From a plasmid, in the sequence record NZ_CP143948.1: a stretch of 64,000 bases of DNA; one strand, 5' to 3'. Of this stretch, positions 372 to 12,687 are shown piece after piece; position 1 is the stretch's first letter, and every line of letters starts with the position of its first letter. A program made the position numbers and the translations under genes. The notes beneath the pieces are model-generated. The model ran no database searches, was not told the DNA's origin, and saw only the letters and a list, made by a program, of their open reading frames with translations.

Positions 372-866
372 CTAAAGGTTTACAAGTATCCGTGTCCATG
401 CTTCGCATAGCCTTTCAAATGACCATGCCGCATTTGCAGGGCTTGTGGACGGCAGTGTGACTGCCTCCATACCTGTCAGAGTAAGCTGATATTTCTTATA
501 AAGCGCTCCTGCTTTATTTCCGTTTACATATACCTGTTTTATATCGGCTGTTTCAAGGATTTTCCTTATATCTGTCGGTTCGACGTTTTTGATGCTGTTG
601 TCGCTCGAACCCTTGATATCACAGCTTTGTATCACATCCCATATGGCTATGTGGTTTTTAAACAGCATATATTTCTTCTCATCTATCGTCTCCGGCACCG
701 GTTCATCCAATAGATACGCAAGCAGCTTCCAAAAACGGTTCTGCTTGTGTCCGTAATAGAAATTGTTTTCCCTTGATGCAACGGACGGCAGAGTGCCGAG
801 GATCAGTATGCGGCTGTTTTCATCATAGACAGGCTCGAAGGAGTGGGTTATGTGTTCGTATTCCAT
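372..866 (-). CDS. uracil-DNA glycosylase superfamily protein (Mug/TDG-like or DNA-deoxyinosine glycosylase family)
   Basis: 164 aa. ILILGTLPSxxS, NxFYYGHKQNRFW and HIAIWDV motifs match UDG-superfamily glycosylases. Confidence 0.6.
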   Translation of the reverse strand: MEYEHITHSFEPVYDENSRILILGTLPSVASRENNFYYGHKQNRFWKLLAYLLDEPVPETIDEKKYMLFKNHIAIWDVIQSCDIKGSSDNSIKNVEPTDIRKILETADIKQVYVNGNKAGALYKKYQLTLTGMEAVTLPSTSPANAAWSFERLCEAWTRILVNL

Positions 867-1138
867 ATTGTTACCTCTTATATCTGCAGCAGCTCTTCCG
901 GCTTATCAATACATTTTAACTATACTACAATGCCGTTGTTTTTTACAACAATACGCATAGTTCCCAGAAAAATAACTTATGATTATTATACTTTATCCAT
1001 CTTGATTTCACAATCTTTTGTTCACGACAAAAAAGTAGTCGTTTCACTTCCACATTTTTTGACGTTATAACCCATTATAACCCATTGATGTTTCACTCAA
1101 AATGGGTTATAATAGATTGTAAGAAACGGGGTGATATT

Positions 1139-2938
1139 ATGGATATCTACAAACGAATTTATGAATTAGAAAACGAGATAGCAGCCTTACCACAAGGTTC
1201 TATCAACATGAAGAAAATTTACGGCAAAGAGCAGCCTTATCTGCAATGGACAGAGAATGGAAAAAGCAAAAGCAAGTACATTAAAAAGAACGAACGCGAA
1301 GAAATTTTTGCAGGTGTTGAAAGGCGCAAACAGCTTCAAGAAGAATTGAAAGAACTGAAACAACACAGTTCTATTGATCCATCTAAATCTACAGATTTTG
1401 AAACTTCTGTCATTATCGGAGAACGTCTTCTGGCACTGACAAAAGGTGTAAAAAACTGGGGAAAACGTGATTGTTTCAGACAGTTACAGGCATATTTAAA
1501 CAGTGAGGAAACAGATCGTGTATGCTTGGTATTTGGTCTGCGACGAACAGGAAAGACAACAATGCTGCGTCAGGCTGTTTTAGGAATGACTCCATCACAG
1601 TCCGCAAAATCAGCATACATCAAAGCAAAAGGGAGCGATACCATGGCAGCGATGAATCGTGATTTGGGCAAACTCCTTGATCTGGGATATGAATATGTTT
1701 TTATTGACGAAGTAACCCTAATGCCCGACTTTATTGATTCAGCAGCACTATTCTCTGATATCTACGCTGCACAAGGTATGAAAATTGTTTTATCCGGAAC
1801 AGATTCTCTTGGCTTTTGGTTTGCGCTTCATCAGGAACTTTATGATCGAGCTGTTACGATTCACACTACCTTTATTCCATTCCGTGAACATAGTCGTTTA
1901 CTCGGTATCGACAGTATTGACGAGTATATTCGCTATGGCGGCACACTTCGTGCAGGAGAACTGGATTTTGATGATAAAGACGTTATTTCAGAGGATGCTT
2001 CGTTCCGTGATGACGAATCCACACGGCGTTATATCGATACCGCAATCTGTAAAAATATCCAGCACTCCCTGAGTTGTTGTCAAGACGGAGGATATTTCCG
2101 TCATCTCCAATCACTCTATGAGGCAGGTGAACTAACAGGTGCTATCAATCGAATCATTGAGGATATGAATCATCGTTTCCTTATTCGTATTCTGACCGAC
2201 AAATTCAAATCTCATGATTTGGGTTCAGCTGCTGATGTTTTGCGAAGAGATCGTAATCCCAAACAGCGTACAGATATTTTGGATAAAATCGATACAGAAG
2301 CAGTAACCAAACGATTAATGGATATGTTGGAGATTCACAATAAAGAAGAACAATCTATTGGTATTACAAATGCTCACATAGAGGAAATCAAAGAATATTT
2401 GAAAGCACTTGACCTGATTGTTGACGTTCCACGAGAAACGGTAATTCCAAGTGCCGAACCACTAGAGAATATTTTATTCACGCAACCAGGCATGCGTTAT
2501 TGCCAGGCACAGGCATTGGTTCATTCTTTGACAAAAGATGAATTATTCTCTACATTGAGCGAGCACGAAAAAATGTTAGTTTCTGAACGTATTTTGGAAG
2601 AAGTGCGTGGTCGTATGATGGAAGACATCGTACTTTTAGAAACATTCAAATCGGCTAAAAGGCATCAACGTGTTTTCAAATTGCAATTTGCTGTCGGCGA
2701 ATACGATATGGTAATTTACGATGCTAAACTCAATACATGTGAATGCTACGAAATAAAACACAGCTCGAAAATTGTTCCAATGCAAGCCCGCTTCTTAGTT
2801 GACGAAGAGAAACTGAATCAAACAAGTCAGAGATTTGGCCAGATTACCAAGCGATGTGTGCTCTATCGTGGTGAAGATTCCGTCATGGAAAATGGCGTTG
2901 AGTATCAGAATGTAGAAAATTATTTGAAACATTTATAA
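1139..2938 (+). CDS. AAA+ ATPase, AAA_14/DUF4143 family, with an N-terminal coiled-coil extension
   Basis: Walker A motif GLRRTGKTTML, Walker B motif YVFIDEV, C-terminal DUF4143-like region. Start placed at MDIYKRIY (ATG 1139) because a GGGGTGA RBS lies just upstream. The track ORF begins earlier, at 1085. Confidence 0.7.
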   Translation: MDIYKRIYELENEIAALPQGSINMKKIYGKEQPYLQWTENGKSKSKYIKKNEREEIFAGVERRKQLQEELKELKQHSSIDPSKSTDFETSVIIGERLLALTKGVKNWGKRDCFRQLQAYLNSEETDRVCLVFGLRRTGKTTMLRQAVLGMTPSQSAKSAYIKAKGSDTMAAMNRDLGKLLDLGYEYVFIDEVTLMPDFIDSAALFSDIYAAQGMKIVLSGTDSLGFWFALHQELYDRAVTIHTTFIPFREHSRLLGIDSIDEYIRYGGTLRAGELDFDDKDVISEDASFRDDESTRRYIDTAICKNIQHSLSCCQDGGYFRHLQSLYEAGELTGAINRIIEDMNHRFLIRILTDKFKSHDLGSAADVLRRDRNPKQRTDILDKIDTEAVTKRLMDMLEIHNKEEQSIGITNAHIEEIKEYLKALDLIVDVPRETVIPSAEPLENILFTQPGMRYCQAQALVHSLTKDELFSTLSEHEKMLVSERILEEVRGRMMEDIVLLETFKSAKRHQRVFKLQFAVGEYDMVIYDAKLNTCECYEIKHSSKIVPMQARFLVDEEKLNQTSQRFGQITKRCVLYRGEDSVMENGVEYQNVENYLKHL

Positions 2939-3258: not shown

Positions 3259-4734
3259 TCAGCTCAGCTCTATCTCATATGCTCCGGCTTCAAAATCCAC
3301 CGTAAGAAGCGCATACGCTTCACCGTTATCATAGCGGATTGAGAGCTTTGGTCCTTCTCCTGCTACTGTGATGACAGCTCCCTTCTCAAACGCCTTATGG
3401 GTGTTTCTCATGCGAAGCAGCTCAAGCTGCTTTGCAACAACATCCTTTTTTAGCGCCTCCTCAATATCGGAAGCACTGAGGTTTGTCCTGTTGATTTCCT
3501 TATGTCCTGATTCTCCTGCTCGTCTTACTGCCTCATGGTCATTTTTGCCTGCAAAGAGATCCAGATACCATACCTGCGGCTTGCCCGGCATGAACATCTG
3601 AATAGCACGGGCCAGAAGCATTTTGCTGTCAGACTCACCAAGCGCACTGTAATATGTGGCATTGACCTGATAATATATATTCTTCTGTCCATGAAGATTT
3701 TTGACCATGCCGCCACGAGATACAATCAAATCTATAAGCGAGCGAATATCGTCCTCCGGAAGCAGACCCTTTAAATCCAGAAGAGGTATGCCGTCATGGC
3801 AGCCAAGCATATTGACAGTGGAGATTTTATCATCCACAACCTCACGCGCCCATTTTGCAAGGTAATCTGCTCTCCTGTTCTCAATCGCGTCAATTACCAG
3901 TCCCGGTAAAAAGAAATCATATGTGGCATAGCCCTTATCTGCAAGGGTTTTGTATATTTTCTCCTCATATGCCGCGTGTATTTCAGGCAGCAGAGTCAGC
4001 CCGAGCGGAGCTGCAAGCTCATGGATCTGCTGTAGAAATTCCCAGGTCTCAGGATCATTCAGGAAATTCTTTTTCCCCGGTGCCTTAGGCGCATAGGCAA
4101 ATGCATCGAGCCGCACAATAGCCGCACCGTAGGATGCTATTTTTTCAAGTGTTTCACGATAAAAATCCCATACCTTTTCGGACTTTATATTTAAATCCAT
4201 CTGCCCCAGATATTCTCTGCCATGCACCTCCTGGTAAAATGTGTTCCAGTATGGCACCCTTCGTCCATCCGGAAACTCAACCATGAGAATCGGAAGCCCC
4301 GGCTTTCTGAAAAACATCTGCTTTAAGCATGACTCATCAGGCTGTATGTAGCCCTCGTCCGTCATGACTCCATGACCTTCCCAGAATTTGTTCCAGTCTA
4401 TGAAAAAATCCCGGTACTCCGACTCATCGCCCTTTTCCACAAGATCCTTGAACTGTGGTGACTGTGCTGAAGCATGATTTAAAATAAAGTCAAGCTTTAA
4501 GTCAATCCCCAGCTCCTTCAATTGCGATAAATCCTCTATTGTCGCAAGCTCCTCATTCAGATTGTAGTCCACGACCGAAAATCCGCGATCCAAATCCGAA
4601 TGATACAGGCTTGGCAGAATATAAAATGATGAAAATGTGTCCTGCATTTCCTTCTTTTTGAGCAGCGCTGCGATATCGGAAAGCTTACCGCCCAGACTGT
4701 CAGGATATGCGTTAAGCATAGGTTTATTGTTCAT
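3259..4734 (-). CDS. gtfA: sucrose phosphorylase (GH13_18 family)
   Basis: Matches sucrose phosphorylase along its length (YPDSLGG, FYILP, ILNHASAQSPQFKDLVEKGDESEY, RLDAFAYAPK). The track ORF begins at a TTG (4755). An ATG at 4734 with an AAGGATGG RBS lies 5 nt after the alpha-galactosidase stop. Confidence 0.8.
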   Translation of the reverse strand: MNNKPMLNAYPDSLGGKLSDIAALLKKKEMQDTFSSFYILPSLYHSDLDRGFSVVDYNLNEELATIEDLSQLKELGIDLKLDFILNHASAQSPQFKDLVEKGDESEYRDFFIDWNKFWEGHGVMTDEGYIQPDESCLKQMFFRKPGLPILMVEFPDGRRVPYWNTFYQEVHGREYLGQMDLNIKSEKVWDFYRETLEKIASYGAAIVRLDAFAYAPKAPGKKNFLNDPETWEFLQQIHELAAPLGLTLLPEIHAAYEEKIYKTLADKGYATYDFFLPGLVIDAIENRRADYLAKWAREVVDDKISTVNMLGCHDGIPLLDLKGLLPEDDIRSLIDLIVSRGGMVKNLHGQKNIYYQVNATYYSALGESDSKMLLARAIQMFMPGKPQVWYLDLFAGKNDHEAVRRAGESGHKEINRTNLSASDIEEALKKDVVAKQLELLRMRNTHKAFEKGAVITVAGEGPKLSIRYDNGEAYALLTVDFEAGAYEIELS

Positions 4735-7564
4735 AGACTTTGCCATCCTTTCCAACTACTATACGCGCATTTTTACTCTGTAAATCAAGCTTTTCCTGCT
4801 CCAACTCTACCACGCGGCATATGAAAGGGCTTGCGGCGTTTTCGTCACGTCCTCTCTTAATGCGGCGCGCCTTAGTCTCCTCAGGCGAACTCTCCAAAAA
4901 TACAGGTATATCAACACCCTTAAGGTATTCGCTTCCTCCGTGGGTCCACTCCAGGATGAGCACCTTAATTCCTGTAAAATCAGTTTCATCATATGAGATA
5001 TCACCGTCCTGGCGGCCCATATGCTTTATCTCAATTATATTTTTTCCTTTCTTAAACTCTGAAAGCTCCTTGTTAATCCTGTCAAAGTCAATCTCCTTAG
5101 GTGTTCCAAGATATCCACGTAAGCCATCCTCACCGGACTCGTTATACACATTAAGGCGTTCTTCGTCGTTTCTCATCGGGATACGGTGTGGATAATTGTC
5201 CCCAGTCAGCACATAGCAGGCTGTATTATCCTTCAAAAAATACTGCTGCAGGGCTGCTGCAATCGTTGTCTTTCCTGAGCCTGAGCCGCCGTAGATGCTT
5301 ATTACAATACGTTTATCAGAAGAACTATCTGCAGTGTCAGCCTCACTTAATTTTAGATTGCCGCACACCTTCTTTATCTCATCATACAGCTTCTTTGCCT
5401 CATCAAGCCTGATAAATGAAAACTGATATGCCTCATACTCCTTTGTTGCAAACGGAAGCGGTATTCCGGCATTCATCAGTGCTGCACCTGTGTACTGCCT
5501 GCCGGTATTTTCCTCAATATATACTGCATCCGACTCCAAGCCCTTAAGCTTCACATAGCAAGCAGCCGCGTTTGCCTCCGCATACAGACGAACCACGCTC
5601 ACAAGCGCCCTGTCCTTTGCCCTTGAGACAGACATCCACGCAGCCACCTCATCCTCAAATGGGCTTGTAAGGCGCCAGTAGGTGCCCTCATTTATAAGCA
5701 TCTCATACTTCTTAAAGGTCTTGATCTGCTCTCTGATTTCTTCCTTTTCCTCATCCGACAGAAGGGCCGGATTCAGCTCATAGCCAAAGGTTCCTGCCAT
5801 GGCTGTGATGCCTCTTGTTTTAAGGCTTGTCACTCTGCCGGTCTGATGATTTGGCACTGCCGATACATGCGCTCCCATGGACGATACCGGATAGAAGAAT
5901 GATGTGCCATACTGTATTCTTGTACGGTTTATGGCATCTGTATTGTCACTGCACCATATCTGTGGACTGTAGTAGAGCATGCCTGCATCAAATCGTCCAC
6001 CGCCACCGCTGCAGCCCTCAAGAAGTATATCCGGATATCTTGTCACCAGACGCTCCATAAAATCATACACTCCAAGCACGTAGTCGTATGCAAGATTTCC
6101 TGCATATACGTCAGCCATGCTTCTGTTCATATCCCACTTCACGTAGTCGATTTTTCCCTGGTCAAACACTGCGCAGATCTGATTGAAAATATTGTCCCTG
6201 ACTTCTTTTCTCGAAAAGTCTAAAAGAAGCTGGTTTCTTGAGCGTACAGGAAGCTTTCCCGGAATCTGGATAGCCCAGTCAGGATGCTCTCTGTACAGAT
6301 TACTGTCCTCATTTACCATCTCAGGCTCAATCCATATTCCAAACTTCACTCCCTGCGCATGCACTCTGTCGATGAGCTCAGAAAGTGTTCCGCCAAGCTT
6401 TTTCTCATTCACAAACCAGTCACCGAGTGATGAATTATCATCATCTCTCTTTCCAAACCAGCCGTCATCCATGACCACCATATCTATGCCCAGTGATGCG
6501 GCCTCCTTTGCAAGGTCTACTATCGTATCACCGGTAAAGTCAAAGTAAGCAGCCTCCCAGCTATTGATGAGCACCGGTCTTACCTCATGTGCAAATCTGC
6601 TCCTGCACACATGCTCACTGATGCAGGTGTGGTACTGATGGGAAAGCTGTGAGAAACCGTCTGCCGAGTATGACATAATCACCTCAGGCACTGTAAAGGT
6701 CTCTCCTGCCGCAAGCGGATATGAAAACAGCTCATCGGAAAGCCCCATTAAAAGGCGTGTCTGGTTAATCTGATCCTTCTCTGCCTCACATGAGAAGTTG
6801 CCACTATATACAAAAAGCATACCATAGCAGTCTCCTGCATTTTCTGTAGTATCGCGCTGTGCGAGAATAACCGCCGGATTGTACTGGTGGCTCGAGGTTC
6901 CTCTGCGGCTTCCGAATGAAAGTGTGCCGTGTCCTAAGTGTGTGCGCTCAAGATTGCGCTCCATGGCATGCTTACCGTAGAATCTGATCACATCATAGTC
7001 TCCGTAAACCATATCCAGGCAGGCAGCATGAGCCTTTTCAATTGTAATATTCCCACTGCCTGTATTTTTAATGAGCACACTTCTTGTGATGACATCACAA
7101 GCCTCAAGCACACCATAAAGCAGATGCACCTCAACGCCTGCGATATCATCGCCAAGAACTATTTCAAGAGTCTGCGCTTCATCATCAGATGCCCACACTG
7201 CCGGAAGTCCCTTTAGAGCGTATTTTCCGTCTCTGATTTCATGACTCTTATAAAGAAGCTCAACACTCTCAGTGCCCTGTTCGTTTTTGATATCAAGCGC
7301 AATATTTCTGAAATCGCCTGTGCCAAGTGTCGGATACTCCTGTGGCAGCGTATCAAGCGAATATGTACGGTTCATGCCTGCTGCGTAAGGATTGCCTGAA
7401 AAGCCTCTGTCAGCATATGTCAGAACATAGTCCATATCACATGTGCTTTTTGCTCCGTAGTACAGATGCAGCAGATAGCCCAGTCTGTCCACCTGCATCT
7501 GATATGTGGTGTGAGCTGTCTGTAAAGTAAAAATTTTCTTGTTTGGATTAAATATAATTGCCAT
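4724..7564 (-). CDS. GH36 alpha-galactosidase fused to a C-terminal uridine-kinase/PRK-like P-loop kinase domain
   Basis: Residues 1-~725 match a GH36 alpha-galactosidase (AgaA/MelA type). Residues ~735-946 carry a Walker A motif (ISIYGGSGSGKTT) and Udk-like blocks (VLILEW, DIPVFLESSPEETKARRIKRGRDE, IVVGKDG). The ORF is continuous at 946 aa. Confidence 0.75.
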   Translation of the reverse strand: MAIIFNPNKKIFTLQTAHTTYQMQVDRLGYLLHLYYGAKSTCDMDYVLTYADRGFSGNPYAAGMNRTYSLDTLPQEYPTLGTGDFRNIALDIKNEQGTESVELLYKSHEIRDGKYALKGLPAVWASDDEAQTLEIVLGDDIAGVEVHLLYGVLEACDVITRSVLIKNTGSGNITIEKAHAACLDMVYGDYDVIRFYGKHAMERNLERTHLGHGTLSFGSRRGTSSHQYNPAVILAQRDTTENAGDCYGMLFVYSGNFSCEAEKDQINQTRLLMGLSDELFSYPLAAGETFTVPEVIMSYSADGFSQLSHQYHTCISEHVCRSRFAHEVRPVLINSWEAAYFDFTGDTIVDLAKEAASLGIDMVVMDDGWFGKRDDDNSSLGDWFVNEKKLGGTLSELIDRVHAQGVKFGIWIEPEMVNEDSNLYREHPDWAIQIPGKLPVRSRNQLLLDFSRKEVRDNIFNQICAVFDQGKIDYVKWDMNRSMADVYAGNLAYDYVLGVYDFMERLVTRYPDILLEGCSGGGGRFDAGMLYYSPQIWCSDNTDAINRTRIQYGTSFFYPVSSMGAHVSAVPNHQTGRVTSLKTRGITAMAGTFGYELNPALLSDEEKEEIREQIKTFKKYEMLINEGTYWRLTSPFEDEVAAWMSVSRAKDRALVSVVRLYAEANAAACYVKLKGLESDAVYIEENTGRQYTGAALMNAGIPLPFATKEYEAYQFSFIRLDEAKKLYDEIKKVCGNLKLSEADTADSSSDKRIVISIYGGSGSGKTTIAAALQQYFLKDNTACYVLTGDNYPHRIPMRNDEERLNVYNESGEDGLRGYLGTPKEIDFDRINKELSEFKKGKNIIEIKHMGRQDGDISYDETDFTGIKVLILEWTHGGSEYLKGVDIPVFLESSPEETKARRIKRGRDENAASPFICRVVELEQEKLDLQSKNARIVVGKDGKVYEQ

Positions 7565-7603: not shown

Positions 7604-8440
7604 TTATCCCTTGATTGCACCGTTTGCAACACCGTTTAATATCTGCTTCTGGCAGATTATATAGAATATAAGTATCGGTATCAAAGCCAGAATATATGAT
7701 GCAAATGCCAGATTGTAGTTGGTTCCAAACTGTGTCTGGAAATTCAGCTGTGCCAGCGGCAGTGTATTCTGTCCTGTTCCTGACATGATGACAAGCGGTG
7801 TCATGACATCATTCCAGGTACCGAGTGCTGTCAGGATGGCTACTGTCGCATGCATAGGCTTCATCATAGGAAATACAACTCTCCAGTATGTTGTCCATGT
7901 ACTTGCGCCATCGATGTCTGCAGCCTCCTCAAGTGCCATAGGGATATTTTTCAAGTATCCACTATATAATAATACATTCATTGGCATGTAAAATACAAGA
8001 TATAAAATGATAACTCCTGCCCTGTTTCCAAGTCCCATCTGCGCAGTCTGCTTTACAAGAGGCATCATGAGAATTGAGAATGGCACAAACATACCGCTTA
8101 CAATGTAAAGATATATGAAACGGAAGCTCTTTTTCCTTGCCATGCCTCGTCCGATAACATATCCTGCAATCGAATGGATAAGGATTGCGAGAACAATGGT
8201 CACAATAGTGATAAGTAAGCTGTTTCCGAGAGAATGCCAGAAATCAGTCACCTTCATAGCCTCTGTGAAGTTTGAAAAGCTCCACTTTGAAGGGAATGAA
8301 AGAGCTCCTGCGACATCATTTGTCATCTCACTCGGTTTCTTGAAGGCAATGATAACAGCCATATACAGCGGGAAAAATACTGTTAAGGTTCCCAATATTA
8401 AAACGATGGTAAGTACCCAGTTTGATTTTTGTTTTTTCAT
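7604..8440 (-). CDS. carbohydrate ABC transporter permease (MalG/RafG-like)
   Basis: 278 aa, 6 TM, EAA-like loop (ALEEAADIDGAST). Lies in the raffinose locus. Confidence 0.8.
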   Translation of the reverse strand: MKKQKSNWVLTIVLILGTLTVFFPLYMAVIIAFKKPSEMTNDVAGALSFPSKWSFSNFTEAMKVTDFWHSLGNSLLITIVTIVLAILIHSIAGYVIGRGMARKKSFRFIYLYIVSGMFVPFSILMMPLVKQTAQMGLGNRAGVIILYLVFYMPMNVLLYSGYLKNIPMALEEAADIDGASTWTTYWRVVFPMMKPMHATVAILTALGTWNDVMTPLVIMSGTGQNTLPLAQLNFQTQFGTNYNLAFASYILALIPILIFYIICQKQILNGVANGAIKG

Positions 8441-9315
8441 TATAACTGCTCCTCCTTCTTATTCATAACGCCCATCTGGAATAGTGAAATAGCCACAATT
8501 ACAACAAAGAAAATTACTGCGTTTGCACTCTGGAAGCCAAACTGTCCTCCATCCATACCATTTCTGTAAATCAGGTATGAGATTGACTCAGTGCTCTGCG
8601 CCGGGCCGCCCTTTGTCAATGACATAATCTGGTCAAATACCATGAGGAAGTTCTTTGTGCTGAGCACCAGATTGATTGTAACAAATGGCATAACGAGTGG
8701 AAATGTAACCTTCCAGAACTGCTTCCATTTGCTTGCTCCGTCGAGCATGCTGGCTTCGTAAACATCCTCAGGCACTGTCTGCAGTCCGGATATATAAATG
8801 ATGGTATTCATGGCAACCGCCTGCCATACCCCGACAATCAGCACACCAATCCATGCATATTTTTCACTCGCCAGAATACTGTTTTGTAAGAAACCGATGT
8901 TGAAGGTATTTCCTACTGCCGGCAGAATATATGTAAAAATAAAGCTGAAAATGTAACCAATAACCAGTCCGCCAAGGATATTCGGTACGAAATAAACACC
9001 TCTTAATGCACTCTTGCCGCGGATATTGCTGTTTAACGCAACTGCCATTACAAGGCTTAATACATTTACAAGTACAGTTCCTGCAATCGCATATTTAAAG
9101 GTAAACAGATAGCTCTTTCCGACTCTGGCGTCGGTAAACAGGTCTGTATAGTTTCTAAGTCCGACATAATCATATGAGCCATAGCCCTTGTAGTTTGTAA
9201 AGCTGTAAATCACACCCTTTATCATCGGCAGTGTGTTGAATGCGAAAAATAAAACCACAACAGGTATCACAACTGCCCAGAATGTCTTGTCTCTATTTGA
9301 CATTTTCTTTTTCAT
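8440..9315 (-). CDS. carbohydrate ABC transporter permease (MalF/RafF-like)
   Basis: 291 aa membrane protein with EASMLDGASKWKQFWKVTFP. Translationally coupled to the downstream permease. Confidence 0.8.
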   Translation of the reverse strand: MKKKMSNRDKTFWAVVIPVVVLFFAFNTLPMIKGVIYSFTNYKGYGSYDYVGLRNYTDLFTDARVGKSYLFTFKYAIAGTVLVNVLSLVMAVALNSNIRGKSALRGVYFVPNILGGLVIGYIFSFIFTYILPAVGNTFNIGFLQNSILASEKYAWIGVLIVGVWQAVAMNTIIYISGLQTVPEDVYEASMLDGASKWKQFWKVTFPLVMPFVTINLVLSTKNFLMVFDQIMSLTKGGPAQSTESISYLIYRNGMDGGQFGFQSANAVIFFVVIVAISLFQMGVMNKKEEQL

Positions 9316-10613
9316 TTTGCATCCTCCTGTTCCTTCTGGTAATCCTGTACTTCACGAATCAGATCTCTGTTGTAACGCTTCCAGTCTGAATCAAATTTCT
9401 TTAAGAACTTCTCCTTTGCATTGTCACCTGTGTCAAGCAGATATGTCTGAATCATGGCATCCACGCTCATCTCACTTGGATAATGATGATCCTGATAATC
9501 TGACATACGGTTGTCCTTTATATACTCCTGCATATCCTCCAGTGTATCAGGTATTGCGAAATCTCCCTCCTTGCAGGCAATTCCGCCCTGGTCATCCAGA
9601 TATGTCTGAATTGTCTCATCGCTGTACAGATATTCAAGCACCTCGTATGCTGCTTCCTTATTTTTGCAGGCCTTCATAACTGAAAACTGTAAATCTATTC
9701 CTGAATTTAACACATTGTCAGCCTCATTATCATTTGCCGGGAAAGTAAATGAACCGATATTCATATCAGGATTAACCGACTTAATCTGAGGAATAGCATA
9801 GCTTCCTATCGTGTACATGGCAGATTCACCTCTGGCAAAGGCTGTACATGCGTCATTGTAGCTGTAAGCATATGGATTGTCCTCTGCATAATCAAGCAAT
9901 GTGCGTATCTTGTCGGCAACCGGAGAATATGCCTCCTCAAATGTCGTATTTCCCATATTTACCTGATTACAGGTGTCTGAATCACAAAGGCCTACTGCAA
10001 GGGCATTCCACGGTGCCAGACAGGTCCATGTATCCTTAAAGCCCAGATACAAAGGAAGTGTTCCGCTTTCCTTTATCTCATTGCACAGTGCTGTAAACTC
10101 ACTCCAGGTTGTAGGCACCTTCCAGCCATTCTCCGCAAACATATCCTTGTTGTAAAGCACTCCTGCTGCATTTGCGGCGTAAGGAAGTGCATAGGTGCCA
10201 TCCTTTGGAATGAACTCAAGCTCCTTGTCCATATCCAGATATGCCTTTTTTACAGTGTCCACTGCATCCAGATCTGAGATATCCTCAAACAAATCTGCAT
10301 CCAGGAAATTTGAATAATTGATATCTCCACCTATTGCAATGATGTCCGGATAATCCTCACGGATGAAGCGTGTCTTTAAAATAGTCATAGCCTCATTCGG
10401 AGATGAGATAGTCAGGTGAATATCATCGTGAGTCTCATTAAATCGCTTTTCAATCTTCTCGAAAGCCTTAACAGCCTCCGGCTTATAAGAAACCACCTCA
10501 ATCTCAGTTTTTCCGTCCGCCCGCTTTTCATTTCCACATCCGGTCAGCCCTGTAGTGCACATTCCGAGTGCCAGCACAACCGCCATAGCCTGACAAATCT
10601 TTCTTTTTGCCAT
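9312..10613 (-). CDS. extracellular solute-binding lipoprotein of the sugar ABC transporter (RafE/MsmE-like)
   Basis: 433 aa with a lipobox (LTGCGNE). Family-1 SBP fold, located upstream of two permeases. Confidence 0.75.
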   Translation of the reverse strand: MAKRKICQAMAVVLALGMCTTGLTGCGNEKRADGKTEIEVVSYKPEAVKAFEKIEKRFNETHDDIHLTISSPNEAMTILKTRFIREDYPDIIAIGGDINYSNFLDADLFEDISDLDAVDTVKKAYLDMDKELEFIPKDGTYALPYAANAAGVLYNKDMFAENGWKVPTTWSEFTALCNEIKESGTLPLYLGFKDTWTCLAPWNALAVGLCDSDTCNQVNMGNTTFEEAYSPVADKIRTLLDYAEDNPYAYSYNDACTAFARGESAMYTIGSYAIPQIKSVNPDMNIGSFTFPANDNEADNVLNSGIDLQFSVMKACKNKEAAYEVLEYLYSDETIQTYLDDQGGIACKEGDFAIPDTLEDMQEYIKDNRMSDYQDHHYPSEMSVDAMIQTYLLDTGDNAKEKFLKKFDSDWKRYNRDLIREVQDYQKEQEDAK

Positions 10614-10792: not shown

Positions 10793-11644
10793 GTGACTCA
10801 CATGGACAAACTTTCCTTCAATATTTTTCCAAATGTAAATTTCATAGATTTGTGTATGTACCAGTTCGGCCACGAGCAGTGCGAACCGGGACACTCATTT
10901 GGTCCTGCCACAAGAAACCACTATCTATTCCACTATGTACTGTCCGGCACCGGCACTCTGATGGCCGATAATGCAAAGGGCATTACACAAACCTACAACA
11001 TAAAAAGCGGGCAGGGCTTTCTGATTTTTCCCGGCCAGATAAATACCTATATCGCAGATGACAAGCTTCCTTGGGAATACATATGGATTGAGTTTGACGG
11101 TCTGCGCGTCAAGGAGGCTCTCACCACAACAGAGCTTACCCAAAATAATCCTGTATATCACACACACTCAAAGGATATCCGCGAAAAGCTTGTTGAGGAA
11201 ATGCTCTACATCACAAGGCACCCCTCAGAATCACCGTATCACCTGATTGGGCATATGTACCTTTTTCTGGATTATCTGATGCAGTCAGCCAAATCATCAA
11301 AACTCGTTCCGGGTGGGAAAATGAGTGATTTTTATATAAAAGAAGCGATGAATTATATCGAGCAGAATTTTCAGAATGATATCTCAATCGAAGATATTGC
11401 CGGAGTCTGCGGCATAAACCGAAGCTATCTGGGCAAAATTTTCAAAAATTCCGTTGGACATTCACCTCAGGAATTTCTCATGAATTATCGTATGATAAAG
11501 GCCACAGAGCTTTTAAAGCTGACCTCCTTATCCATCGCAGATGTTGGTTCTGCCGTTGGATACGAAAATCAGCTTCATTTCTCACGCGCCTTTAAAAATA
11601 TCTACGGAGTGGCTCCGAGGGAGTGGAGGAACGAGCATAAATAA
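10793..11644 (+). CDS. AraC family transcriptional regulator (MsmR/RafR-like), divergent from the transporter
   Basis: 283 aa. N-terminal cupin-like sugar-binding domain and C-terminal AraC HTH (IADVGSAVGYENQLHFSRAFK). Confidence 0.8.
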   Translation: MTHMDKLSFNIFPNVNFIDLCMYQFGHEQCEPGHSFGPATRNHYLFHYVLSGTGTLMADNAKGITQTYNIKSGQGFLIFPGQINTYIADDKLPWEYIWIEFDGLRVKEALTTTELTQNNPVYHTHSKDIREKLVEEMLYITRHPSESPYHLIGHMYLFLDYLMQSAKSSKLVPGGKMSDFYIKEAMNYIEQNFQNDISIEDIAGVCGINRSYLGKIFKNSVGHSPQEFLMNYRMIKATELLKLTSLSIADVGSAVGYENQLHFSRAFKNIYGVAPREWRNEHK

Positions 11645-11646
11645 GC

Positions 11647-12687
11647 TCACTGTTCATCCTTCACAAATTCATTTACATTGTCATGGGTCACCTTCTCATA
11701 CGGCAGATAAACATACTTTTTATCCTCAAACTTTATGTTTTTCATGCTGCCCCCGGTGGCTGCCAGATAGGCAAGCTGAGCCATAGCCCTTGCCTGTCCC
11801 TCCTTGTCATTGTAGACTGTTGCCGCAAGCTTCGACTGCTGCACTGCTTCAAGCCCATCGTCTGTGCCGTCCACTCCAAAAAATGCAGGTACATTCGACT
11901 CCGTCACACCAAGCTTTTCGTATGCGTCTATCGCTCCGAGTGCCATTGCATCGTTGTTTGCAATAACCAGCTCTATGCTGTTTTTATACTGACCTATAAG
12001 CTGTGTCATACGGTTCTGCGCCTGAGCACGATTCCAGTTTGCTATCTGACAGCTAAGCTTTTCTATCTGAAGACCGTTATTCTTCATGCTCTCTGTCACA
12101 CTCTCTGTCCTGACAATGGCATCCTGATGTCCCATCTCTCCCTCCAGGATGACGTACTGTATCCTGCCATCACCGTTTTTATCCACACCCGGATTATTCT
12201 TTATATAATCGGCAATGAGTTCCCCCTGCATCTGACCTGACTGCTTTGCCTTGGCCCCGACATAGTACAGCTTATCCCAGCGATTTAAATCCTCATCAAC
12301 CGGCTCCCTGTTAAAGAAAATAATCGGGATGTCCTTCTCCATTGCAGCATTTATAATATGCGACAAATCTGTTCTGTCTGCCAGATTAATACACAGCACA
12401 TTGCAGCCGTCCTCTATCATCTCCTGCACCTGGTCATCCTGTGCACGCTGTGAGCCTGCAGCATCCATGATTGTCATGCTGATATCATATTTGTCTGTAT
12501 CAAGACTTGCGCACTCCTTTTTGAAAGTTTCTATCAGCTCCCCGATAAATGTATCCTTCTGGTCATAGCAGGTCACGCCTATATATATCTGTTTTTTCTC
12601 GTCAACTCTTGTGTTGCTGCACGAGACAAATGACAATATCAGTGCAAAACACAGTATCATCATGGTATTTCTTATTCTGCTTCTCAT
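11647..12687 (-). CDS. periplasmic sugar-binding lipoprotein (PBP1, MglB/RbsB-like), probably a sensor partner
   Basis: 346 aa with a lipobox (LSFVSCSN). Type-I periplasmic binding-protein fold. Lies in an operon with the HK/RR pair. Confidence 0.65.
   Translation of the reverse strand: MRSRIRNTMMILCFALILSFVSCSNTRVDEKKQIYIGVTCYDQKDTFIGELIETFKKECASLDTDKYDISMTIMDAAGSQRAQDDQVQEMIEDGCNVLCINLADRTDLSHIINAAMEKDIPIIFFNREPVDEDLNRWDKLYYVGAKAKQSGQMQGELIADYIKNNPGVDKNGDGRIQYVILEGEMGHQDAIVRTESVTESMKNNGLQIEKLSCQIANWNRAQAQNRMTQLIGQYKNSIELVIANNDAMALGAIDAYEKLGVTESNVPAFFGVDGTDDGLEAVQQSKLAATVYNDKEGQARAMAQLAYLAATGGSMKNIKFEDKKYVYLPYEKVTHDNVNEFVKDEQ

Follow-up and report, generated by a model that had tools for sequence, protein, structure and literature searches.

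Fusion of an alpha-galactosidase to a sucrose kinase in the window

An open reading frame of 946 amino acids on the 64,000-nucleotide stretch of plasmid DNA analysed here (sequence record NZ_CP143948.1; hereafter the window) is, with a probability of roughly 0.93, the Agathobacter (Eubacterium rectale group) orthologue of the bifunctional enzyme AgaSK, and its product would work in the raffinose pathway outlined below. AgaSK joins a glycoside hydrolase family 36 (GH36) alpha-galactosidase to a sucrose kinase (SK) and was reportedly first described, in Ruminococcus gnavus E1, by Bruel and co-workers (2011, J Biol Chem 286:40814). For the window gene, the analysis established its domain content, orthology, synteny, intact catalytic motifs and predicted fold. 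An earlier note on the window had called a glycoside hydrolase fused to a small-molecule kinase an architecture not described for raffinose utilisation. This was wrong, because the AgaSK fusion has been published in R. gnavus, E. rectale and Blautia hansenii (PDB 2YFN/2YFO; PMC6521584; PMC7688924). The GH36-kinase architecture is already known and has been reported before in this host group. The gene and its parts are as follows.

4724..7564, minus strand: agaSK, 946 amino acids, bifunctional GH36 alpha-galactosidase/sucrose kinase; single open frame with its stop codon at 4724-4726
5417..7480, minus strand: GH36 alpha-galactosidase module, with GH36N at residues 29-285, the Melibiase catalytic barrel at 289-626 and GH36C at 641-716
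5306..5416, minus strand: interdomain linker, residues 717-753 (37 residues), containing the helix EAKKLYDEIKK and 11 residues that R. gnavus AgaSK lacks (BLASTP)
4727..5305, minus strand: SK P-loop domain, residues 754-946, placed by PF00485, identity to R. gnavus, the structural model and invariant residues
5267..5290, minus strand: Walker A motif G759-G-S-G-S-G-K765-T766, read in the sequence

All three parts of the GH36 module are strong Pfam matches in the agaSK product (GH36N, E 2.9e-85; Melibiase, E 2.3e-148; GH36C, E 2e-19). Over residues 1-719 the protein scores 1401 bits against PDB 2YFN/2YFO, the "alpha-galactosidase-sucrose kinase AgaSK" of R. gnavus E1. The deposited chain ends at residue 720. 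In a database fragment (P0005), the R. gnavus kinase domain comes after the C-terminus of 2YFN, and the window tail is 69% identical to this fragment over 238 amino acids, with the single 11-residue linker insertion in the window protein (BLASTP). Domain order is the same in both proteins: GH36N, catalytic barrel, GH36C, linker and a kinase domain with a Walker A motif. The catalytic residues Asp478, within KWDMN, and Asp540, within CSDNTD, are both present and are numbered identically in R. gnavus AgaSK (RgAgaSK; PMC7688924). The operon is also alike, with an AraC regulator, an ATP-binding cassette (ABC) transporter, agaSK and, directly downstream in both, a GH13_18 phosphorylase. The window protein differs in coming from another genus, in being about 11 residues longer through the linker insertion, and in having an SK domain that is more diverged than the GH36 domain.

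The same bifunctional gene and locus have been reported in B. hansenii DSM 20583 as well as in E. rectale ATCC 33656, as can be seen in the published synteny figures (PMC6521584; PMC7688924). In all likelihood, the window gene is the very family member listed for E. rectale in Tauzin 2019 and Lafond 2020. The fusion was said in those papers to be limited to a few species, whereas here it was found intact in 26 species-representative genomes. The exact 946-residue sequence is named "MULTISPECIES: alpha-galactosidase [Agathobacter]" in the database, where the protein is annotated for Agathobacter and A. rectalis.

Raffinose-family oligosaccharides are hydrolysed by RgAgaSK (Lafond et al. 2020, PMC7688924), and alpha-galactosidase activity of the orthologue on melibiose, raffinose and stachyose is reported in the literature. 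Sucrose is phosphorylated with ATP by the full enzyme (kcat 3.3 s-1, Km 3.1 mM) as well as by the isolated kinase domain, RgSK (kcat 2.4 s-1, Km 1.0 mM; PMC7688924). Raffinose hydrolysis and ATP-dependent sucrose phosphorylation by the window protein are predicted from this orthologue. In the proposed pathway, raffinose-family oligosaccharides would be taken up by the ABC transporter whose genes lie upstream in the operon. The GH36 module, with D478 as nucleophile and D540 as acid/base, would remove the alpha-1,6-linked galactose and leave sucrose. The C-terminal P-loop domain, with Walker A K765/T766, D789, E872 and the LID-like arginines R901, R904 and R906, would then phosphorylate sucrose with ATP, and the sucrose phosphate would be further processed inside the cell. 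We infer that it is consumed by the sucrose 6F-phosphate phosphorylase (SPP) whose gene lies downstream and is translationally coupled, so that the last step would yield glucose-1-phosphate and fructose-6-phosphate for one ATP.

Several points weigh against this reading. The enzymology was measured for the R. gnavus enzyme only, and it would carry over to the Agathobacter protein by analogy, with an SK domain only 69% identical to the characterised one. The proposed final step also conflicts with a published regiochemical measurement. The phosphate is assigned to glucose C6 in the work of Bruel 2011, as cited in PMC7688924, and the neighbouring phosphorylase is of a type strictly specific for sucrose 6F-phosphate, which does not match a product phosphorylated on glucose C6 (PMC6521584).

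The C-terminal kinase domain

By profile and model, the tail is a uridine-kinase/PRK-like P-loop kinase domain, as the earlier note had proposed for 4727-5362, coordinates that correspond to residues 735-946. The PRK/uridine kinase family PF00485 matches residues 754-906 with 31.6 bits in the full protein and 35.4 bits in the tail alone, against a gathering cut-off of 22 bits. The match covers profile positions 1-151 of 196 and places the tail in the PF00485 family. Residues 735-946 were modelled by AlphaFold2 from a 70-sequence family alignment, with a mean predicted local distance difference test score (pLDDT) of 92.5 and a predicted TM-score (pTM) of 0.88. Low pLDDT values, 55-75, are found at residues 735-754, the first 20 of the modelled segment, which lie in the linker. 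A Foldseek search of the PDB with the model ranked uridine-cytidine kinases first (E 2e-9, TM 0.61-0.68), ahead of phosphoribulokinases and pantothenate kinases. The Walker A motif and the sequence blocks on which the note had based its proposal are all present, as GGSGSGKTT at 759-767, LILEWTHGG at 869-877, SSPEETKARRIKRGRDE at 892-908 and IVVGKDG at 935-941.

Across the 70 SK-family homologues in the alignment, 25 positions are invariant. These include, in the Walker A motif, G759, S761, G762, G764 and K765; in a GDNYP segment, G788, D789, Y791 and P792; N799, D800 and R803; E872, W873 and H875, where the strand VLILEW ends; and R901. Conservation reaches at least 90% for R904, R906 and D907. 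The GDNYP segment aligns with the DGDN segment of adenosine 5'-phosphosulfate (APS) kinases (phmmer against PDB sequences), a segment that is catalytic and binds Mg in those enzymes.

The SK family also contains standalone proteins, for example P0095 of Petrocella atlantisensis. Their kinase core is 40-50% identical to that of the window protein and has the same invariant residues, and a strict-type GH13_18 phosphorylase is likewise encoded next downstream. They differ in having no GH36 fusion and in being extended at the N-terminus by a segment that contains a conserved GDMPGD motif; in many of them, about 46 residues are inserted behind the NDxER motif. In the alignment (which includes P0063, P0065, P0067, P0093 and P0095), the GH36-fused forms have neither the extension nor the insertion. 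In a profile search of 1.84 billion representative proteins, the SK family proved to be of modest size, with 147 clusters (50% identity) at E <=1e-30 and 498 at E <=1e-10.

The Pfam name suggests a uridine/cytidine kinase or a phosphoribulokinase, and the earlier note had allowed for either a sugar or a nucleoside as the phosphorylated product. The PF00485 match lies above threshold, the nearest solved structures are uridine-cytidine kinases, and there are weak matches to Udk equivalog models. The tail shares with the PF00485 enzymes (3W8R, 1UFQ, 5B3F) a P-loop fold like that of nucleoside monophosphate kinases, the Walker A motif and a LID-like arginine-rich helix. However, the equivalog models fail by a wide margin, with 32.3-36.7 bits against a cut-off of 220.3 for TIGR00235, 31.8-36.3 against 180 for NF004018, and 21-24 against 362 for phosphoribulokinase. 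Identity to uridine-cytidine kinases is just 13-23%, and the SK-family motifs GDNYPHRIP and EWTHG are not Udk motifs. The acceptor of the characterised orthologue, with its 69% identity, is sucrose, a disaccharide, rather than a nucleoside or a pentulose phosphate (PMC7688924), and all genomic partners of the SK family are sucrose-related enzymes. A nucleoside kinase or phosphoribulokinase is thus very improbable, and of the two products allowed for, the sugar fits and the nucleoside lacks support. APS kinases fare no better at the equivalog level (TIGR00455, 27.6-30.1 bits against 138.7), and PF01583 gave no full-length match, aligning only over profile positions 3-43 of 152, which hold the P-loop and the DGDN-like segment. 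Membership of the uridine kinases, phosphoribulokinases and APS kinases was rejected on these cut-offs.

The note had also suggested an inactive nucleotide-sensing module. In R. gnavus, the kinetics of the alpha-galactosidase on natural substrates are the same with or without the SK domain, and the kinase has a high Km for ATP, 6-8 mM (PMC7688924), as might be expected if the tail were a catalytically inactive sensing or regulatory module. This suggestion is contradicted by the invariance of the Walker A residues, D789, E872-W873-H875 and R901, by the conservation, of at least 90%, of R904, R906 and further positions, and by the isolated R. gnavus domain, which turns over sucrose and ATP (PMC7688924). 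Because the catalytic motifs are conserved and the orthologous domain was measured to be active, an inactive module is unlikely in the extreme, if marginally less so than a nucleoside kinase. Least credible is an assembly or sequencing error that joined a GH36 gene to a separate kinase gene. Split layouts are real: a GH36 gene lies directly upstream of a standalone SK gene in four of the loci surveyed below (L056, L057, L072, L078), the frame is disrupted in two assemblies (L006, L012), and Clostridium sp. L2-50 is reported to have kinase and GH36 as two separate genes (PMC7688924; PMC6521584). Against this, the identical 946-residue product is found on 660 public contigs (NCBI, JGI, ENA and Logan), the same fusion frame is intact in 26 species-level genomes, and the R. 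gnavus fusion protein has been expressed and purified (PMC7688924). The frame is therefore not an artefact, and the 660 independent contigs rule out misassembly as the source of the long reading frame. The note's description of it as continuous, with no stop or frameshift, was correct. The 90% identity cluster of the protein has 20,432 members.

The locus and the downstream phosphorylase

The other genes of the locus are listed below.

3259..4734, minus strand: GH13_18 phosphorylase, 491 amino acids, predicted SPP from PDB matches and the loop A motif
7604..8440, minus strand: ABC-transporter permease, PF00528 BPD_transp_1 (E 1.6e-25 and 6.9e-19 for the permease pair)
8440..9315, minus strand: ABC-transporter permease, PF00528 BPD_transp_1
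9312..10613, minus strand: ABC-transporter solute-binding protein, PF01547 SBP_bac_1 (E 2.4e-32)
10793..11644, plus strand: AraC-family regulator (agaR equivalent), divergently transcribed, PF00165, PF12833 and PF02311

This order (AraC regulator, binding protein, two permeases, agaSK, GH13_18 phosphorylase) is that of the published Rgaga1 locus (PMC7688924; PMC6521584), in which the binding-protein gene is the counterpart of window 9312..10613 (PMC7688924). Synteny is shared with 24 other loci, and the order is kept in the fusion loci fetched. The permease pair is syntenic in 24 of the 28 loci with agaSK or a disrupted copy, the other four being cut off or only partly matched upstream. The position of the AraC-family regulator is conserved in the syntenic loci. 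The best genome match, Agathobacter sp. LCP21S3_B2 (L001), is 97-99% identical over the whole locus, which places the origin of the window in Agathobacter. Three flanking genes appear unrelated to AgaSK.

372-866, minus strand: uracil-DNA-glycosylase superfamily protein
1085-2938, plus strand: 617-residue AAA_14 ATPase with a TTG start
11647-12687, minus strand: Peripla_BP_4 sugar-binding protein

The gene directly downstream of agaSK is most likely an SPP and not a classical sucrose phosphorylase, judging from its PDB matches and a loop motif. Among PDB entries, it scores highest, at 603.6 bits, against the strict SPP from Ilumatobacter coccineus (IcSPP; 6S9U), compared with 198.5 bits for the classical sucrose phosphorylase 1R7A. 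At residue 351 it has KNIYYQ, which fits the loop A motif KxxYYQ, described as the mark of strict SPPs (Franceus and Desmet, PMC7178133). With this motif and its closer likeness to IcSPP and to the R. gnavus orthologue RgSPP than to sucrose phosphorylases, the window gene falls in the strict SPP clade. RgSPP acts on sucrose 6F-phosphate and not on sucrose (PMC6521584), and phosphorolysis of the phosphate ester but not of sucrose was measured for IcSPP as well. The window protein just passes the NCBIfam "sucrose phosphorylase" model TIGR03852, at 345.6 bits against 334.4. The conserved start of the phosphorylase is the ATG at 4734, preceded by the Shine-Dalgarno-like GGAAAGGA, and gives an overlap of 11 nt with agaSK. 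This 11-nt overlap recurs unchanged in all 25 GH36-SK fusion loci whose junction could be measured. The note's translational coupling to a sucrose phosphorylase was therefore right about the overlap, but the partner is most likely an SPP.

The kinase family is tied to the phosphorylase

The genomic setting of the kinase family was surveyed in the best 80 of at least 587 kinase loci (genome scan, one genome per species; L001-L080). These 80 loci span Bacillota, Actinomycetota, Spirochaetota and Chloroflexota. The GH36-SK fusion is intact in 26 of them, all in genomes labelled Lachnospiraceae or closely related, so the fusion frame is present in at least 26 species-representative genomes and the extension recurs in this family, as the note had proposed to check. 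Hosts of the intact fusion include Roseburia faecis, R. porci, Lachnobacterium, Eubacterium ramulus, Falcatimonas and Muricoprocola. Two further loci have a disrupted copy, four have the separate GH36 gene upstream of a standalone kinase, and the remaining 48 have a kinase gene without GH36 directly upstream (45 standalone kinases and 3 kinase-phosphorylase fusions).

Whether or not GH36 is present, the next gene downstream of the kinase encodes a GH13_18 phosphorylase in 75 of the 80 loci. KxxYYQ is found in 70 of these 75 phosphorylases; in the others, K is replaced by R or N, or the sequence is truncated at a contig end. Of 74 measurable kinase-phosphorylase gene pairs, 39 overlap or form a single fused frame and 30 more are separated by 1-50 nt, so that 69 of 74 pairs overlap or are spaced by no more than 50 nt. 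At least five proteins are complete kinase-phosphorylase fusions: three encoded in surveyed loci (L026:5911-8100, L036:5809-8310 and L075:5287-7986) and the database proteins P0130 and P0158. All five keep Walker A, GDNYP, EWTH and KxxYYQ. No mention of this single-polypeptide architecture was found in the AgaSK and phosphorylase literature examined. Across these loci, the kinase family is associated far more closely with the phosphorylase than with GH36.

The five loci without a downstream phosphorylase are two from Chloroflexota, two from Solobacterium and one cut by a contig end. In the two Chloroflexota metagenome-assembled genomes (L042:729-6774 and L043:3414-8671), the SK gene directly follows that of a 700-736-residue protein without a Pfam match; a GH32 enzyme is encoded upstream in L042, and an amylosucrase-like GH13 gene follows the kinase in L043.

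The converse was examined in the best 80 of at least 537 phosphorylase loci (metagenome scan, L081-L160), in a scan seeded with the Ilumatobacter enzyme sequence from the PDB alignment. A homologue search from the downstream phosphorylase of the window had listed 120 matches, all close Lachnospiraceae relatives, with no distant strict phosphorylases among the matches listed. In the metagenome scan, 65 loci with a strict-type phosphorylase extended 800 nt or more upstream of it; an SK gene was found in only 4 of these, and 61 had no SK neighbour. SK lies directly upstream in L081, L082 and L102, whose phosphorylases are the closest relatives (71-77% identical) of the characterised Ilumatobacter enzyme. 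Elsewhere the phosphorylase is accompanied by a PfkB kinase and a major facilitator superfamily transporter (L130), by a GH32-PfkB fusion (L157), or by sucrose-phosphate synthase and sucrose-6F-phosphate phosphatase (L093), partners that likewise point to sucrose 6F-phosphate metabolism. Thus, the kinase implies the phosphorylase, and the phosphorylase does not imply the kinase.

Other forms of SK-family proteins were seen in the course of the survey. Of the two disrupted copies, L006 has a frame break inside GH36, and in L012 (Blautia intestinalis) the frame is broken at the GH36/SK junction and the phosphorylase is fragmentary. A 207-residue standalone SK with the aberrant C-terminus CIFFFLHSAEPVPFRSRPGIFRDRL has hundreds of database members (disrupted-copy proteins P0019, P0022 and P0025), which suggests a frameshifted allele circulating in gut strains. 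The kinase-phosphorylase fusions, from Bacillota and Actinomycetota, are 730-900 residues long (730 in L026) with SK at the N-terminus and the phosphorylase at the C-terminus, and fragments of such proteins are also present (P0129, P0132). GH100-like (invertase-like) P-loop proteins (P0201, P0209, P0231, P0262) were considered as a third type of SK fusion and rejected, as GDNYP and EWTH are absent from them. Their P-loop domains are best treated as a more distant group and were not used as evidence. A GH100-like (neutral invertase-like) domain was seen in P0201 and P0231, and P0209 and P0262 resemble these in length and layout only. Among closer SK members, the apparent fusion partners are an esterase (P0122), a beta-lactamase-fold protein (P0127) and a fumarase fragment (P0124). 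Gene-calling artefacts may account for some of the esterase, beta-lactamase-fold, fumarase and GH100-like fusions.

Position of the phosphate

The near-obligate pairing and the repeated fusions suggest that the phosphorylase uses the product of the kinase, and this in turn would require the phosphate to be on fructose. SK and the strict SPP could then form one conserved two-step module, in which sucrose and ATP would give sucrose 6F-phosphate, and sucrose 6F-phosphate and inorganic phosphate would give glucose-1-phosphate and fructose-6-phosphate. The kinase would in this way be the source of sucrose 6F-phosphate in gut bacteria. The basis for the module is genomic: the downstream linkage in 75 of 80 loci, the relatives of the Ilumatobacter enzyme, the 11-nt overlap and at least five fusions together suggest it. 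We give the module about even odds, because it contradicts the published measurement of the phosphate position.

In the published model, SK makes sucrose phosphorylated at C6 of glucose, which is cleaved by a GH32 sucrose-6-phosphate hydrolase encoded elsewhere. The phosphorylase would belong to a separate route and use sucrose 6F-phosphate from another source, for example ABC import. This account falls a little short of an even chance. It has behind it the glucose C6 assignment credited to Bruel 2011 in PMC7688924, the proposal by Tauzin 2019 of sucrose 6F-phosphate uptake and a separate SacA route (PMC6521584), and the repetition of the model in a 2025 paper. The 61 metagenome loci without a nearby SK gene also fit, since they mean that the phosphorylase can function without SK. 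The linkage is more difficult for it. The phosphorylase directly follows SK across four phyla, fetched relatives of the characterised Acidimicrobiia phosphorylase are in the same gene order, and the close spacing and single-polypeptide fusions are hard to explain without a shared metabolite. Moreover, PMC7178133 concedes that it is not known where sucrose 6F-phosphate comes from, and the mass spectrometry of 2020 cannot distinguish the two isomers (PMC7688924). The phosphorylase assays in PMC6521584 did not include the isomer phosphorylated on C6 of glucose.

Annotation and significance

Public databases name the bifunctional protein "alpha-galactosidase" only and its neighbour "sucrose phosphorylase". 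Standalone SK relatives are named "adenylylsulfate kinase", "zeta toxin family protein" or "ATP-binding protein"; from the profile comparisons, "adenylylsulfate kinase" is likely an over-annotation for members of the SK family. The practical value of these results for annotation is that current database names hide or misstate the sucrose-kinase function.

Earlier publications already cover the bifunctional enzyme, a crystal structure of its GH36 part, the kinase activity and the occurrence in E. rectale, and the fusion itself adds nothing new. The additions made here are the presence of the fusion in at least 26 Lachnospiraceae species genomes and the finding that the kinase is linked more tightly to the phosphorylase than to GH36. 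The kinase-phosphorylase linkage is the sole part that might repay experiment. If the two enzymes do share sucrose 6F-phosphate, the published regiochemical assignment would need revisiting, and gut Lachnospiraceae, which are abundant producers of butyrate, would turn each raffinose-derived sucrose into two glycolytic hexose phosphates for one ATP.

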